NCBI GenBank assembly: GCA_031425015.1
Contig: JANPIM010000013.1
Location: 120,939 to 184,938 of the forward strand
Reading direction: 5' to 3'
Length of the DNA: 64,000 nt
Source: Segetibacter sp.
GTDB lineage: Bacteria; Bacteroidota; Bacteroidia; Chitinophagales; Chitinophagaceae
Shown here: positions 33,806 to 48,954 of the stretch, in pieces
How positions within the stretch are numbered: the stretch's first letter is position 1
How the letters are laid out: the number at the start of each line of letters is the position of its first letter
Position numbers and translations under genes: made by a program
Notes under the pieces: model-generated
Told to the model about the DNA's origin: nothing
Database searches by the model: none
The model's input: the letters and a program-made list of their open reading frames with translations, nothing else

Positions 33806-33869
33806 GTCAGATTTGCTGTAATTTGGCCAGGTTTCCATGTCATAACATCTTCACCTAAAACATTTGCAC

Positions 33870-34403
33870 ATGCCAGTAGCTTCCCCATTTAACCTAAAGG
33901 GTTGGATAAATGAACATCGTAATCTTTTAAAACCACCGGTTGGTAATCAATGCGTTTATAAGGATGCAGAAAATTTTATAGTGATGGTTGTGGGCGGCCC
34001 GAATGCACGCAAAGATTATCACTACAATGAAAGTGAAGAATTGTACTACCAGGTAGAGGGAAATATTGTGTTGAAGATTATTGATGAGGGTACGCCACGT
34101 GATATTCCCATCAACGAAGGCGACATGTTTTTACTTCCGCCACAAACGCCACACTCACCCCAGCGCCCAGCAAATACCGTTGGCTTAGTCATAGAAAAAA
34201 AACGTGAAGACGAGGAAAATGAGAAAGATGCATTCATGTGGTTCTGCGAAAATTGCGGCAATAAGTTGTACGAAGAATTTGCTTTCGTCAGCGATATTGT
34301 ACAACAGCTTCCGCCTATAATGGAGAAGTTTTATTCGAATGAATCATTGCGGACTTGTGATAAGTGCGGGGTGGTGATGGAGCCTCCAATTAAAAAAGAT
34401 TAG
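33870..34403 (+). CDS. nbaC: 3-hydroxyanthranilate 3,4-dioxygenase
   Basis: LLKPPVGN, VVGGPNARKDYH.NE.EE, PHSPQR, WFCENC...CDKCG (rubredoxin-like site). Confidence 0.96.
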   Translation: MPVASPFNLKGWINEHRNLLKPPVGNQCVYKDAENFIVMVVGGPNARKDYHYNESEELYYQVEGNIVLKIIDEGTPRDIPINEGDMFLLPPQTPHSPQRPANTVGLVIEKKREDEENEKDAFMWFCENCGNKLYEEFAFVSDIVQQLPPIMEKFYSNESLRTCDKCGVVMEPPIKKD

Positions 34404-34862
34404 AACGCAGATTTTTATGATTGTGATGATTAAAATGATTTTATGGACACTTATTTACACTCTGATATCACATCGTTAATAATAAAAGGGTTCTATACAG
34501 TTTATAATAGACTTGGTTATGGTTTTCTTGAAAAGGTTTATGAAAATGCGCTGCTATTTGAACTTAGAAAACAGGGATTAGTTTGTCAACCACAGCTGCA
34601 GGTCAAAGTTTTTTATGATGAGGTTCAAGTTGGTTATTACGTAGCTGATATGATAGTTAATGACAAAGTTATTGTAGAAATTAAAGCCGCTGAAGCTTTA
34701 TGTGAAGAACATGAAGCACAGCTTGTGAATTATTTGAGAGCAACAAATATAGACGTAGGAATACTTTTGAATTTCGGTAAGAAAGCAGAGCTGAAAAGAA
34801 AGGTGTTCTCATCTTAATTCAAAAATCATAACGCATCATCAGAATCATAAAAATCTGCGTTC
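34403..34862. mobile_element. Putative inverted-repeat-bounded GxxExxY cassette inserted between nbaC and nbaD
   Basis: GAACGCAGATTTTTATGATTGTGATGAT (34403-34430) vs ATCATCAGAATCATAAAAATCTGCGTTC (34835-34862), 27/28 complementary. Mobility is inferred, not shown. Confidence 0.55.
34443..34817 (+). CDS. GxxExxY protein (PD-(D/E)XK-like)
   Basis: LGYGFLEKVYENAL (GxxExxY), ADMIVNDKVIVEIKA, QLVNYL, GILLNFG. Confidence 0.92.
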   Translation: MDTYLHSDITSLIIKGFYTVYNRLGYGFLEKVYENALLFELRKQGLVCQPQLQVKVFYDEVQVGYYVADMIVNDKVIVEIKAAEALCEEHEAQLVNYLRATNIDVGILLNFGKKAELKRKVFSS

Positions 34863-34872
34863 CAATACAATA

Positions 34873-35859
34873 ATGAAAATCGACATCCACACCCACATCA
34901 TGCCGGAGCATATGCCTAACTGGACAAGAAAGTTTGGCTACGGCGAGTTTATTCATTTGGAGCATCGCAACTGCGAGGCTTGCATGATGAAAGGTGATAA
35001 GCTATTTCGGGTAGTGGAACCGAATTGTTTTAAAGCTGAGGTGCGGATAAAAGACATGGACGAAACAGAGGTATCCATGCAGGTGCTTTCAACTATCCCG
35101 GTGCTTTTTAATTATTGGGCGAATGCAAATGATGGACATGAAACGGCGCGTTTTTTAAATGATCACCTTGCTGAAGAAGTTTATAAGGCACCCGATCGCT
35201 TCATAGGTATTGGCACAGTTCCGTTACAGGATATTGATTTGTCGATAAAAGAAATGGAGCGGTGTATGCACGAATTGAAAATGCCTGGTCTGGAAATTGG
35301 CTCCAACATCAACGGCAAAAATCTAAGCGATCCATCTTTCTTTCCTTTTTATGAAGCTGCAGAAAAAATGGGATGCGCCTTATTTGTTCATCCGTGGGAA
35401 ATGATGGGAGAGGACCAGATGCAAAAATACTGGCTGCCCTGGTTGGTAGGAATGCCTGCTGAAACTACACGTGCCATCTGCTCAATGATTTTTGGTGGCG
35501 TGTTTGAAAAGTTTTCAAAGTTGCGCGTAGCCTTTGCACACGGTGGCGGATCATTTCCGTATACCCTGGGCCGAATAGAACATGGCTTTGATGTTCGACC
35601 TGATTTGGTAGCCGTTGATAATTCAAACTCGCCGCGCAGTTATCTTGGCAAGTTTTGGGTGGATAGCCTTGTTCACGACCCTAAAACTCTTCATTATTTA
35701 TTGGATGTAATGGGTGATGATAAAGTTTGTCTCGGTAGCGATTACCCTTTTCCTCTGGGGGAGCACCGTCCCGGCAAATTGATCCAGGAAATGAACATCG
35801 GGCAACAGGTGAAAGAAAAATTATGGTATCAAAATGCGAAGAATTGGCTGGGCTTATAA
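34873..35859 (+). CDS. nbaD: 2-amino-3-carboxymuconate-6-semialdehyde decarboxylase (ACMSD, amidohydrolase 2 family)
   Basis: IDIHTH, FVHPW.MMG, WLPWLVGMPAET, AHGGGSFP..LGR..HG, LGSDYPFPLGE. Confidence 0.93.
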   Translation: MKIDIHTHIMPEHMPNWTRKFGYGEFIHLEHRNCEACMMKGDKLFRVVEPNCFKAEVRIKDMDETEVSMQVLSTIPVLFNYWANANDGHETARFLNDHLAEEVYKAPDRFIGIGTVPLQDIDLSIKEMERCMHELKMPGLEIGSNINGKNLSDPSFFPFYEAAEKMGCALFVHPWEMMGEDQMQKYWLPWLVGMPAETTRAICSMIFGGVFEKFSKLRVAFAHGGGSFPYTLGRIEHGFDVRPDLVAVDNSNSPRSYLGKFWVDSLVHDPKTLHYLLDVMGDDKVCLGSDYPFPLGEHRPGKLIQEMNIGQQVKEKLWYQNAKNWLGL

Positions 35860-39540: not shown

Positions 39541-39812
39541 AAGTCAAAAGTCAAAAAGCAAAAAGCAAAAAGCAAAAATAAAATCAGAATAGAGAAAGTA
39601 ATGTTGCTTTTTCGCTTTGAAAGAAGCTACATAGTAGCACAACTGCTGAACGGAATGCGACGCAAGGATGCTTAACCTGGGCACTAAAGTTTGTACCAAA
39701 ATTTTAGCATAGATCAGGATAATAAAAAAAGTCAAAAGTCAAATTAGAGGCTGACCTCTTTTTTGACTTTTGACTTTTGACTTTTGATTTTTGCTTTTTG
39801 CTTTTTTACTTG
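39541..39812. repeat. Heptamer arrays (AAGTCAA/AAGCAAA and complements) plus one REP-like copy between convergent genes
   Basis: aagtcaaaagtcaaaaagcaaaaagcaaaa (39541-); aaagtcaaaagtcaaa-ttagaggctgacctc-ttttttgacttttgacttttgac (39725-39782); REP core GAATGCGACGCAAGGATGC at 39653-39671. Confidence 0.8.
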
Positions 39813-45640: not shown

Positions 45641-45759
45641 AAAAGATAAATTAATGTTTCAAAAATATTCATCTTTACTAACAACAGTTGCAATCGTTTC
45701 AGCAGTCTGCTTTTGATCAAGCCGCCGCTAATGGTTCAATGTTGAAAATCAGTTTGCCC

Positions 45760-46176
45760 ATGAGTAATATTATTAAAACCGACGCCGCTGCCAAGCCGCT
45801 TGGCGCTTATCCGCATGCAAGGAAAGTGGGCAATCTTTTATTCTTGTCCGGCATTGGTTCGCGCAGCGCTAGCGATAATACCATCCCGGGCTTACAACAA
45901 GATGCAGATGGGACTATCACGGCTTACGATATAGAAGCTGAATGTCATTCAGTATTTGCCAACGTAAAAGCCGTGCTGGAAGCAAGTGGCAGCAGTTGGG
46001 AAAATATGGTTGATGTAACGGTGTTCCTTACCAACATGAAAAAAGATTTTCCTATTTACAACAGGGTGTATGGCGAGTACTTTAAACACGTAGAAGCCTG
46101 CCGTACAACCGTAGAAGTAAAAAGCCTGCCTACACCCATTGCCATCGAACTAAAAGTGATTGCAACGCTTAATTAA
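45760..46176 (+). CDS. RidA/YjgF family protein, likely 2-aminomuconate deaminase
   Basis: PLGAYPHA.KVG..LFLSG, VDVTVFL..M..DF, RTTVEV..LP.PIAIELK; first gene before kynU-kmo; likely start ATG 45760. Confidence 0.82.
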   Translation: MSNIIKTDAAAKPLGAYPHARKVGNLLFLSGIGSRSASDNTIPGLQQDADGTITAYDIEAECHSVFANVKAVLEASGSSWENMVDVTVFLTNMKKDFPIYNRVYGEYFKHVEACRTTVEVKSLPTPIAIELKVIATLN

Positions 46177-46214: not shown

Positions 46215-47483
46215 ATGCAAAACACATTAAAATACGCCCAACAACAAGACCAGAACGATAGATTGAAAGAGTTTAGAAGTAAGTTTTTCATTCCGCAGGT
46301 AAATGGTAAAGAGGCAGTTTACTTTACCGGAAACTCTTTAGGACTTCAACCTAAAACAACGAAATCATACATTAACCAGGAGCTGGATGATTGGGCAAGC
46401 CTGGGGGTAGAAGGACATGTGCATGCGCAAAATCCATGGGTCAGTTACCATGAAGCATTTCCTGCTATCTTGTCCAAAATTGTTGGGTGCCTACCAGGGG
46501 AAGTAGTAGCTATGAATCAATTAACCGTGAACCTTCACCTGTTAATGGTCTCATTTTACCGACCTACCAAAGAACGATACAAAATCATTTGCGAGGCAAA
46601 GGCATTTCCTTCTGATCAGTATGCTTTTCAATCCCAGGCTACTTTTCATGGGTTCGATTTCAATGATGCAATTGTTGAAGTGTTCCCCCGCGATGGAGAA
46701 CATTCCATTCGCCACGAAGATATTCTTGCCACCATAGAAACGCACAAAGATCAACTTGCGCTCGTACTTTTTGGCGGCGTCAATTATTACACGGGCCAGG
46801 TATTCAACATGCAATCCATCACAAAAGCTGCGCACGATGCTGGCGCTATCGCGGGGTTCGATCTTGCCCATGCCGCGGGAAATATTCCGATGCAATTGCA
46901 CGATTGGGATGTTGATTTTGCCTGCTGGTGTTCGTATAAATATTTAAATAGTGGACCCGGTGGAGTTGCTGGAATTTTCATTCATCAAAAGCATACAAGC
47001 AATACCTCGTTGCCGCGCTTTGCCGGCTGGTGGGGACATGATAAAGCGAACCGGTTTAAAATGGGGCAGGACTTTAACCCGATACCAACTGCTGAAGGCT
47101 GGCAACTTAGCAATGCGCCCATCTTGCTGATGGCTGTACACAAAGCATCGCTCGATATTTTTGAAGAAGCAGGCTTTGCAAATCTTGTTGCTAAAAGCAA
47201 ACAATTGACGGGTTATTTGTTGTTTGTATTGGATGAAATAAATAAGTTGATGAATCAACCCATCATTGAAGTAATCACACCAAAAAATGAAGACGAAAGA
47301 GGTTGCCAGGTAAGTATGCTTATGTTGGAACATGGCCGCGAATTTTTTGATGAATTGATACAGCATGGTATAATTGCCGACTGGCGCGAACCTAATGTTA
47401 TCCGTGTAGCGCCGGCACCTTTGTACAACTCGTTTGAGGACGTGTGGCGCTTTGGAGAAGTGGTCAGGACTATTTTGAAATGA
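46215..47483 (+). CDS. kynU: Kynureninase
   Basis: YFTGNSLGLQP, MNQLTVNLH, AFPSDQY, DLAHAAGN, WCSYKYLNSGPG, GWWGH, DWREPNVIR. Confidence 0.97.
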   Translation: MQNTLKYAQQQDQNDRLKEFRSKFFIPQVNGKEAVYFTGNSLGLQPKTTKSYINQELDDWASLGVEGHVHAQNPWVSYHEAFPAILSKIVGCLPGEVVAMNQLTVNLHLLMVSFYRPTKERYKIICEAKAFPSDQYAFQSQATFHGFDFNDAIVEVFPRDGEHSIRHEDILATIETHKDQLALVLFGGVNYYTGQVFNMQSITKAAHDAGAIAGFDLAHAAGNIPMQLHDWDVDFACWCSYKYLNSGPGGVAGIFIHQKHTSNTSLPRFAGWWGHDKANRFKMGQDFNPIPTAEGWQLSNAPILLMAVHKASLDIFEEAGFANLVAKSKQLTGYLLFVLDEINKLMNQPIIEVITPKNEDERGCQVSMLMLEHGREFFDELIQHGIIADWREPNVIRVAPAPLYNSFEDVWRFGEVVRTILK

Positions 47484-47501
47484 AACGGAACGTAAAATGG
47501 T

Positions 47502-47597
47502 ACGCAAATTTTTATGGTTGTTATGATTTGTTATGGATTATGTGGAATTCGTAAAAAAGATCAGTATTCATCCTTTCAGTCATAAAAATCTGCGTTC
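47502..47597. repeat. Gene-less copy of the GxxExxY inverted-repeat bracket between kynU and kmo
   Basis: Left ACGCAAATTTTTATGGTT (47502-47519) pairs with right AGTCATAAAAATCTGCGT (47578-47595). TCATAAAAATCTGCGTTC (47580-47597) is identical to 34845-34862. Confidence 0.8.
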
Positions 47598-47610
47598 AAA
47601 AATTTAGAAC

Positions 47611-48954
47611 ATGACGGAAAAGAGAATTGTAATAATCGGCGCCGGACTTGTTGGTTCGTTGCTCGGAATTTATCTTTCTAAGCGCGGACACCAGGTAAAA
47701 ATATTTGAGCGCCGTGCCGATATGCGTCAAGAAATAGTGAAGGCAGGCAGGTCTATCAACCTCGCATTAAGTGATCGCGGTCTGAAGGCATTGCGAGAAG
47801 TTGGAATAGCCGACGACTTAATGGAGATTGCTATTCCCATGCCCGGCAGAATGATTCATAACCTGAATGGCGCTAGTGTGTTTCAGGCATATGGTAAAGA
47901 AGGGCAGGCCATCAATTCTGTTTCGCGTGGTGAGTTGAATAAGAAACTAATGGACCTGGCAGAAGCCAATAATGTAGAAATCATTTTCAATAAAAAATGT
48001 GCTTCCATCAATTGGGATAAACGCGAAATTGCTTTTGACGACACCACTACGCTCAACCAGGAGTTTGAATACCCTGATGTGATATTTGCAGCTGATGGAG
48101 CATATTCAGCGGGACGATTGCAGCACATGACCACGCATCCAATGTTTGACTACCAACAGTTTTACATTGATTGCGGCTACAAAGAATTATCGATTCCCGC
48201 AGGGGAAGGCGGAAGTTTTCTGTTGGACAAAAACGCTTTGCATATCTGGCCGCGTAAAGATTATATGCTAATCGCGTTGCCTAATACTGATGGAAGTTTT
48301 ACAGGCACTTTATTCTTTCCGTATCACGGCGAAACGTCATTTGAAAAACTGGATACACCACAAAAAGTACACACATTTTTCTCTTCAGATTTTCCTGATA
48401 TCATGCAACTCATTCCAAACGTGACGGAACAGTTTTTTGAGAACCCCACATCGCCATTGGTGACGGTGAAATGTTTTCCCTGGGTACGTGATGATCGATT
48501 CGCTTTAATCGGTGACGCGGCTCATGCCATTGTTCCTTTTTTCGGACAAGGCATGAATGCCGGTTTTGAAGATTGTTCTGTGTTGAATGAATTGATGGAT
48601 AAACATGGGGATGATTGGGCTGCATTGTTACAAGATTTTCAAACCATGAGAAAACCGGATGCAGATGCCATTGCAGACCTGGCAGTAAACAACTTTATCG
48701 AAATGCGCGAAAAGACAGCGGATCCAATTTTCCTGCTTCAAAAAAAGATAGAAGCACGCCTGCATGAACGCCATCCGAATAAATGGATACCAGCTTATTC
48801 GCAGGTAACGTTCTCGCCACACATCCGTTATTCTGAAGCATTATTGAGAGGACAACGTCAGGAAGCAATTATGCAAACAGTGATGAGCATAGACGGCATT
48901 GCAGAAAAGTGGGACAGTGAGGAAATTGAGAATCGTATTCTTGAGCAGCTCTAA
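47611..48954 (+). CDS. kmo: Kynurenine 3-monooxygenase
   Basis: GAGLVG, GRSINLALSDRG, GYKEL.IP, ALHIWPR, IALPN.DGSFT, GDAAHAIVPFFGQGMNAGFED. Confidence 0.95.
   Translation: MTEKRIVIIGAGLVGSLLGIYLSKRGHQVKIFERRADMRQEIVKAGRSINLALSDRGLKALREVGIADDLMEIAIPMPGRMIHNLNGASVFQAYGKEGQAINSVSRGELNKKLMDLAEANNVEIIFNKKCASINWDKREIAFDDTTTLNQEFEYPDVIFAADGAYSAGRLQHMTTHPMFDYQQFYIDCGYKELSIPAGEGGSFLLDKNALHIWPRKDYMLIALPNTDGSFTGTLFFPYHGETSFEKLDTPQKVHTFFSSDFPDIMQLIPNVTEQFFENPTSPLVTVKCFPWVRDDRFALIGDAAHAIVPFFGQGMNAGFEDCSVLNELMDKHGDDWAALLQDFQTMRKPDADAIADLAVNNFIEMREKTADPIFLLQKKIEARLHERHPNKWIPAYSQVTFSPHIRYSEALLRGQRQEAIMQTVMSIDGIAEKWDSEEIENRILEQL

Follow-up and report, generated by a model that had tools for sequence, protein, structure and literature searches.

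REP/REPIN (BIME) repeats and RAYT proteins (TnpA-REP, of the HUH Y1 type) combine palindromes dispersed at gene ends with a single-copy gene that is itself flanked by the repeat (PMC6006769, PMC3733652); a REP palindrome carries a defining GTAG or CGTC tag at one end (PMC3733652). Ssn nucleases (GIY-YIG) cut single-stranded DNA at SRM/NTS hairpin repeats and modulate natural transformation (Chenal et al. 2025, PMC11893778). The hairpin analysed here, which lies between kynU and kmo in a Segetibacter genome, is placed by sequence comparison in a dispersed GAACGCAGAT-type family, a minority of whose copies hold at their centre an ORF for a GxxExxY nuclease of the PD-(D/E)XK type (PF13366). A literature search found no paper on this repeat, and the copy between kynU and kmo is, in our judgement, probably a decaying, non-autonomous, gene-less member of an apparently undescribed nuclease-linked palindromic repeat family.

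With REP/RAYT the family shares short extragenic palindromes at gene ends, sometimes in tandem, a repeat-flanked gene and the co-variation of repeat and gene variants. It differs in having a PD-(D/E)XK rather than an HUH Y1 enzyme, ends that read GAACGC rather than GTAG or CGTC, arms built of phased 9-10-nt units and a low copy number. The likeness to Ssn/SRM lies in a small nuclease gene between dispersed hairpin repeats and in repeat variants that track nuclease variants across phyla, but GxxExxY (PF13366/TIGR04256, PD-(D/E)XK) is unrelated to the GIY-YIG fold and NTS repeats number hundreds per genome; moreover, the gene here occupies the centre of one repeat unit, the repeats sit in operon junctions and GxxExxY is known from sequence and predicted fold. 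Like MITEs, the elements are small, end in terminal inverted repeats, do not code for protein, occur several times per genome and have a less common, longer form that bears a gene; unlike MITEs, the family has no target-site duplication beyond a possible AT, carries a cargo that is not a known transposase and has interiors that are not near-identical within a genome.

Free-standing homing endonuclease genes include PD-(D/E)XK types such as I-Ssp6803I, and the loaded form of the element (not the kynU-kmo copy) resembles them as a sporadic nuclease ORF at one conserved junction for which decayed and empty states exist. To our knowledge, homing genes are not enclosed in an independent palindrome of which many copies occur without the gene. 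The intervening sequences (IVS) of 23S rRNA likewise enclose a small ORF within a long stem in a transcribed unit, and an ORF family of the IVS four-helix-bundle type occupies the same kynurenine junctions in two contigs (L144 and L207); the present element differs in lying in mRNA operons, not rRNA, and in a stem without covariation.

A first-pass annotation had likened the hairpin to a MITE or a REPIN. Neither label suits it: there is no target-site duplication and no transposase family was matched, no GAACGCAGAT-flanked RAYT gene (PF01797) was found, and the ends read ATR-GAACGC without a GTAG or CGTC tag. RAYT was also rejected as the partner enzyme, all six Y1_Tnp genes of the genome being flanked by other REPs and none by GAACGCAGAT ends. 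These Y1_Tnp genes (RAYT/IS200-like) lie at C41:16041-24128, C35:102102-102446, C13:55291-55635 and C41:183432-183776, three paralogues falling within one 8-kb stretch, and their flanking REP-like hairpins include GGTGCAGCGCACC and GGGTTGTTCAAGGTG...CACCTTGAAC.

The window, by which we mean the whole stretch of 64,000 nt analysed (C13:120939-184938), comes from a 4.9-Mb genome of 42% G+C (G000). Within it, kynU (ORF 46215-47483; TIGR01814 kynureninase, 466 bits) and the gene for 3-hydroxyanthranilate dioxygenase (HAAO; ORF 33864-34403) score above the curated NCBIfam cut-offs. The ORF at 47611-48954 matches FAD monooxygenases below the NCBIfam cut-offs and takes the name kmo from orthology and context; a 162-residue ORF (45688-46176) is RidA-like, also below cut-off, and the 328-residue ORF at 34873-35859, which has no NCBIfam hit, is named ACMSD-like (amidohydrolase) from its conserved position beside HAAO. 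The kynU-kmo junction is made up as follows.

47481..47483, + strand: kynU stop codon TGA, 16 nt upstream of the element
47487..47498, + strand: GGAACGTAAAAT, a degenerate extra element end in direct repeat with the left arm (sequence reading)
47500..47527, + strand: left arm GTACGCAAAT-TTTTATGGT-TGTTATGAT, degenerate, with 3 mismatches to the family 18-mer (nhmmer E 0.083; covariance model)
47528..47569, + strand: interior, without an ORF, a GxxExxY relic or the central ACGCAGAT motif of standard copies
47570..47597, + strand: right arm, terminating in the exact family end TCATAAAAATCTGCGTTC (nhmmer E 4e-5; covariance model)
47500..47597, no strand: whole element as bounded by covariance model R1 (43.7 bits)
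47598..47613, + strand: linker AAAAATTTAGAAC, then the kmo start codon (ATG at 47611)

The second copy in the window that bears on this one is loaded and occupies the HAAO-ACMSD junction.

34401..34433, + strand: left arm of the loaded cassette, its TAG being the HAAO stop codon
34443..34817, + strand: cargo, a GxxExxY/PDDEXK_3 nuclease ORF of 124 residues (TIGR04256, 131.6 bits; PF13366, 139 bits)
34833..34866, + strand: right arm of this cassette, 8 nt ahead of the ACMSD-like start codon

The arms of the loaded cassette are 32 nt long and 94% complementary. Eighteen nucleotides of the hairpin had been reported as identical to the right end of this cassette; the match is exact and extends to both of its ends, the family 18-mer TCATAAAAATCTGCGTTC occurring at 47580-47597 (+), 34845-34862 (+) and 34403-34420 (-). 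A 3-mismatch version lies at 47500-47517 (-), and at up to three mismatches the window holds five matches as against 0.07 expected from shuffles; a repeat search of the window recovered the same arm pairs, both direct and inverted. On the + strand 16 of the 18 positions pair between the two 18-mers of the kynU-kmo copy (Watson-Crick at 15 and G-U at one, with a U-U and an A-C unpaired), one fewer than the 17 first counted, and the RNA fold leaves two positions of this stem open. The 18-mers are separated by 62 nt rather than 58; as had been stated, this interval contains no ORF (none of 40 residues or more on the + strand). By inverted-repeat search the arms are 26 nt long (47502-47527 and 47570-47595), 77% complementary and 42 nt apart. 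The described placement, directly after a stop codon and before an ATG within one pathway, is borne out by the kynU stop at 47481-47483 and the kmo ATG at 47611.

The family is considerably larger than these two copies. In G000, TCATAAAAATCTGCGTTC occurs exactly seven times and nhmmer finds about 20 arms at about 12 loci, mostly as inverted pairs enclosing 46-250 nt. The covariance model R1 rests on 30 elements, all from genomes other than G000; its best match in the window is 47500-47597 (E 2e-6, or 1.7e-4 genome-wide), and in the whole genome it finds seven gene-less copies, which stand beside the one loaded cassette. An exact 18-mer scan, with one genome per species, gave at least 120 loci elsewhere, in the Chitinophagaceae (Ferruginibacter, Chitinophaga, Segetibacter, Sediminibacterium, Flavisolibacter) as well as in Spirosoma, Sphingobacterium, Saprospiraceae, Ignavibacteria/Melioribacteraceae (Ignavibacteriota) and Chlorobiota; a handful of short contigs placed in other phyla may reflect binning errors. 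The concern that only these two copies might exist is thereby removed. Elements occur in 17 of 151 genera of Chitinophagaceae, at one to about 30 copies per genome; the copies inside one genome have their ends in common but not their interiors, and those of G000 outside the kynurenine genes adjoin unrelated genes.

At least 82 inverted arm pairs were found in other genomes, most of them gene-less, with a modal inner distance of 42-43 nt that corresponds to a 78-nt unit. This standard form is a palindrome of phased 9-10-nt (A/T)ATGAT units with the consensus GAACGCAGAT-TTTTATGAT-TnTnATGAT-TnACGCAGAT ... ATCATAAAA-ATCTGCGTTC (about 78 nt), or, when the copies are aligned in one orientation, GAACGCAGAT TTTTATGAT TnTnATGAT TnACGCAGAT aAAATCATAA nnATCTTAA nnATCATAAAA ATCTGCGTTC; the palindrome reaches three bases further out, as ATR/YAT. 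The same alignment reveals that in the third arm unit ATGAT stands opposite ATCTTAA, or AAGAT opposite ATCATAA, and thus a T-T or A-A mismatch is kept in most copies, and that the centre is inverted relative to the arms (flip-flop) in about one-fifth of them. Whole elements form tandem arrays at L035:6689-7766 (period 111), G051:C21:27317-27815 (140) and G155:C4:16342-16591 (about 87 nt), with near-identical spacers; the arrays resemble BIME-like clusters. In one frame, TTTTATGAT-GTTTATGAT-AAATTAGG, as at L039:3532-3639 and in the arms generally, encodes FYDVYDKLG, similar to the FYNVYNKLG that is conserved at the N-terminus of GxxExxY (tblastn E 0.1); this may be chance in AT-rich DNA.

Against this standard the kynU-kmo copy has the 19-bp terminal inverted repeats GAACGCAGATTTTTATGAT/ATCATAAAAATCTGCGTTC, the right one exact and the left mismatched at 3 of 18 positions, and it lacks the standard length and central unit. 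At 98 nt rather than 78, with no central ACGCAGAT unit and with a doubled left end (47487-47509), it is therefore an irregular, degenerate member; doubled ends are also seen in C44 and L111. It is the most diverged of the kynurenine-cluster copies, with 58-68% identity to the others. Its description as a non-autonomous derivative was right in kind, but it does not form a private pair with the cassette at 34.4 kb, its arms being no closer to those of the cassette than to those of the other copies in the genome.

The connection between repeat and nuclease goes beyond the window. When ORFs beginning just within one arm and bounded by a second are compared, GxxExxY is the sole recurring cargo; bracketed copies, with identities to the window protein where scored, are found in five further genomes or contigs.

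L081: bracketed GxxExxY, 71% identity
L109: bracketed GxxExxY, 66% identity
G169: bracketed GxxExxY, 73% identity
G141: bracketed GxxExxY, 70% identity
L036: bracketed GxxExxY

In another contig, L092, the GxxExxY ORF continues past the contig end. The arm type tracks the protein, GAACGCAGAT arms accompanying proteins of 68-73% identity and GAACACAGATG or ACACGGAT arms those of 55-61%, a pattern from which we conclude that ORF and arm sequence diverge together. Across the 151 genera, elements occur with a protein of at least 52% identity in seven, elements only in ten and the protein only in seven (odds ratio 12.7, p 1.4e-4). Four further GxxExxY paralogues of G000 are each flanked by different repeats. 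The view that the bracket is a unit in its own right, existing loaded and empty, is thus upheld by the arm pairs elsewhere, by the single recurring cargo and by an R1 match obtained without the element's own genome.

The GxxExxY protein of the window conserves D69, (E/D)79 and K81, the predicted catalytic D...(E/D)xK residues, and its AF2 model (pLDDT 90) has Cas4 SSO0001, the Hjc junction resolvase and lambda exonuclease as its nearest solved folds; a comparison with PDB sequences gave no match. The searchable literature yielded no paper on GxxExxY biology and no biochemical evidence for any GxxExxY protein. By analogy with REP/RAYT and SRM/Ssn, the GxxExxY nuclease probably recognises the arms; that it also moves the element we think rather unlikely. 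The many-copy genomes G051, G155 and G085, which have no cognate GxxExxY gene, count against the explanation that we favour.

Loaded copies recur at particular junctions: HAAO-ACMSD is loaded with GxxExxY in three genomes (G000, G141, L036) and the junction of allantoicase with OHCU decarboxylase in two (G169, L081). At the latter junction L100 has a 196-nt element with a 31-codon GxxExxY relic containing an internal stop (E 3e-5), and this is a true scar of cargo decay. An exact-protein look-up found one 945-nt contig that shares the HAAO-GxxExxY arrangement and no other contig with the kynU or kmo protein of the window; in a metagenome scan for closer relatives, kynU identity peaked at 72%.

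In the nearest genomes, whose kynU is 71-77% identical, the kynU-kmo spacers are 57-230 nt long and the element is absent. G014, G013, G011 and G010 have no element at this junction, and in G002 pyrF, not kmo, follows kynU; the only match between the copy and relatives' spacers is a short TTCATyCTTTCA shared with G014. Among 87 kynU loci the family is present between kynU and kmo in G000, L193, L111, L136, L169/L170 (left arm only), L213 and L231, those of L111, L136 and L193 being standard 78-nt gene-less copies. On a quick IQ-TREE tree of kynU with 85 taxa, the element occurs in seven taxa and needs six changes, of which at least five are forced by well-supported branches. In L087, L243 and L232, the sisters of L231, stop and start codons overlap as ATGA at this junction, and the difference therefore reflects independent insertions or seamless excision.

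The element ends contribute to the flanking genes. GAA-CGC-TGA (Glu-Arg-stop) from an element end terminates kynU in L136 and L213, and an element end gives kynU its TAG stop in L231 and HAAO its TAG stop in the window cassette (TAG followed by AACGC). Because the ends contain stop codons, a copy within an operon can directly abut the gene upstream of it. Target-site duplications of more than 2 bp were not found; direct repeats of 3-5 nt at offsets 0-4 are not in excess, only AT being possible, and longer flank repeats show a weak excess. No insertion/deletion polymorphism of the GAACGCAGAT family was seen between near-identical genomes, L207 and L134 sharing their copy. Both results, and the differing interiors of copies within one genome, which set them apart from recently transposed MITEs, weigh against the explanation favoured here.

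Imperfect direct repeats 9-16 nt outside the arms were noted at the kynU-kmo copy: ATGACGGAA at the kmo start (window 47611-47619) imperfectly repeats ATGAAACGGAA at the kynU stop (47480-47490), the exact part being a weak 6 nt only. From its sequence, this repeat may have arisen by duplication of an ATGA junction at which the ancestral genes overlapped. At L149:4003-4097 the flanks carry a 12-nt exact direct repeat, AGTTTACTGTAA; both cases may be landing-site duplications, such repeats being seen at two of 74 elements.

The distribution of copies was unexpected. Kynurenine genes are carried by 11 of the at least 120 loci listed from the 18-mer alone, as against about 0.85 expected (Poisson 2e-9), and the commonest flanking families among the listed loci are aldehyde dehydrogenase, kmo, ACMSD-like, RidA, kynU and pyrF. 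In an independent sample of 14 element-bearing genomes (13 searched plus G000), a copy lies within about 5 kb of kynU or an ACMSD-like gene in six (G000, G054, G076, G141, G155, G183; Poisson 1.4e-5), and in G183 it is the only copy in the genome. In both samples about 10% of copies fall inside kynurenine gene clusters; about 90% of copies lie beside unrelated genes. Cluster copies are 81-92% identical across junctions and genera, whereas the adjacent kynU genes are 72-78% identical at the DNA level, which suggests selection or homogenisation rather than a neutral passenger. We count the tenfold-plus enrichment in one pathway against our preferred explanation.

These observations are also the strength of the best-surviving alternative, which we nevertheless think rather unlikely: that the hairpin acts in cis on the kynurenine operon, whether as an intercistronic RNA structure (for processing, stability or the uncoupling of kmo and kynU translation) or as a protein-binding DNA site, possibly a domesticated repeat. 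Besides the enrichment and conservation, it would account for the common orientation of all seven copies in ALDH-RidA-kynU-kmo-pyrF operons and for the + strand RNA fold of the kynU-kmo hairpin (-25.3 kcal/mol, z -2.1; DNA fold z -1.6). Pairing, however, is not what is conserved. RNAalifold retained only the 16 outer pairs, with compensatory change in none, and the covariation analysis that had been proposed for the stem thus spoke against it; arm position 7 (A/T) varies independently between the two arms, and inner-arm complementarity within elements is not above the between-element level, in a test confounded by element orientation. There is no bias in sense versus antisense fold energy (21 versus 26), and the direction in which the asymmetric centre faces with respect to transcription is only weakly biased (16 versus 7, p 0.09), the excess being due to kynurenine-operon copies.

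Searches for recognizable signals gave the same picture. Compared with Rfam at E up to 10, the stretch 34.3-48 kb yielded nothing relevant; window positions 47300-47800 contain no terminator-like U-tract site (the element stem is 31% G+C), and the element contains no sigma-70-like promoter under a scan model not made for Bacteroidota promoters. Further against a cis element, copies form tandem arrays in L035, G051 and G155, occur in Ignavibacteriota that have no kynurenine genes, and are for the most part beside unrelated genes, while kynU and kmo overlap or are very closely spaced in many relatives and the copy in G000 is the most degenerate. The link to the pathway raised at the outset as an alternative is therefore real as a strong enrichment but not as an exclusive one. 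A pathway-specific operator, with sites confined to one regulon, was rejected because about 90% of copies flank unrelated genes.

Less probable still, in our estimation, is that the repeats are not themselves mobile and are the genomic recognition sites of a site-specific GxxExxY nuclease with a cellular role, as the SRM/NTS repeats are for Ssn. This analogy would draw on an architecture shared with the published one (PMC11893778), a small nuclease gene between two copies of its own dispersed hairpin repeat and repeat variants that follow the nuclease variants, on the conserved D...(E/D)xK residues and the Cas4- and Hjc-like fold, and on conservation that lies in primary sequence and not in pairing. 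It fits poorly with one to about 30 copies per genome where NTS number hundreds, with ten repeat-bearing genomes that lack a cognate gene and with a GxxExxY biochemistry found neither in the searchable literature nor through a match in PDB sequences, and it leaves the clustering of copies in one operon unexplained.

That the kynU-kmo copy is the scar of a GxxExxY gene deleted at this junction, as had first been suggested, is very improbable: L100 decayed at a junction loaded in G169 and L081, and the 98-nt copy is longer and less regular than 78-nt copies, but tblastn finds no ORF relic in it, none of 87 taxa has a loaded copy between kynU and kmo, standard gene-less copies stand there in L111, L136 and L193, and a fixed gene-less architecture is not expected from random deletions.

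We thus return to a decaying, gene-less member of a nuclease-linked family as the reading that best accommodates the data. In this lineage the copy would have arrived, or been seeded anew, between kynU and kmo, perhaps from a copy already resident among the neighbouring genes, the cassette at HAAO-ACMSD being loaded in three genomes; it would be co-transcribed as a passenger and now be decaying. The kynurenine enrichment itself could stem from local seeding by a long-resident loaded copy at HAAO-ACMSD, because that junction is loaded in three genomes and because two kynurenine sub-clusters lie a few kilobases apart in several genomes.

A broader proposal, which we offer as speculation with the balance against it, is that a minimal PD-(D/E)XK (Cas4/Hjc-like) enzyme, GxxExxY, is partnered with the phased-GAT palindromes as a third independent repeat-nuclease invention beside REP/RAYT and SRM/Ssn. 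One sub-family would have a heritable home in kynurenine operons and seed gene-less copies into neighbouring junctions, and the ends would supply stop and start codons so that the gain, loss or exchange of cassettes at operon junctions left the flanking genes intact; for such behaviour the swap between L134 and L207 (98.6% identical), described below, provides a demonstration in sister repeat families.

Taken alone, the kynU-kmo copy is an ordinary decaying copy. The interest lies in GxxExxY (TIGR04256/PF13366), a large protein family without a known function: if the nuclease reads the arms, the family would acquire one and might represent a new sequence- or structure-specific nuclease. To the existing picture of repeats and nucleases the present family adds a gene-less form that is a defined 78-nt unit, modelled and countable, stop codons in the repeat ends that explain flush seating inside operons, a sub-family strongly associated, in different genera, with a single catabolic gene cluster, where it is more conserved than the adjoining coding DNA, and true decay intermediates.

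The same operons harbour other hairpins. L207:467-974 and L134:4103-4209 (reverse strand) belong to contigs that are 98.1-98.6% identical over ALDH-RidA-kynU-kmo and differ at the ALDH-RidA junction, where one contig has a gene-less hairpin of about 85 nt and the other a cassette of about 500 nt encoding a four-helix bundle (23S IVS protein family) between GTTTGGAG/CCAAACTC arms. One breakpoint coincides with the ALDH stop codon and the other lies within the first 12 or so RidA codons, the cassette arm then supplying the RidA start. This swap concerns sister repeat families and not the GAACGCAGAT family.

At HAAO-ACMSD, L144 (5205-5627) has an apparently frameshifted four-helix-bundle ORF between CGTTTATCG-type arms and L148 a gene-less GGTTTAGAA-type hairpin. 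G000 encodes a 130-residue four-helix-bundle (IVS-protein-like) ORF at C25:225078-225470, 2 kb from two GAACGCAGAT elements (C25:221360-221648 and C25:222880-223010). The kynU-kmo spacers of L185, L180, L234, L228, L198, L244, L190, L221, L171 and L182 hold at least five other short-word hairpin families, their words including CGTTTCTCG, TTTGGTG, AAAGTCAAAAG, CACAAAG and long perfect palindromes, while 13 of 62 spacers scored at this junction have zero length, with abutting or overlapping genes. Inverted arrays of AAAGTCAAAAG/AAAAGCAAAAAG words, of the type seen in the L190 and L244 spacers, also occur in the window itself at 39541-39811, with 43-nt arms that are 81-89% complementary.
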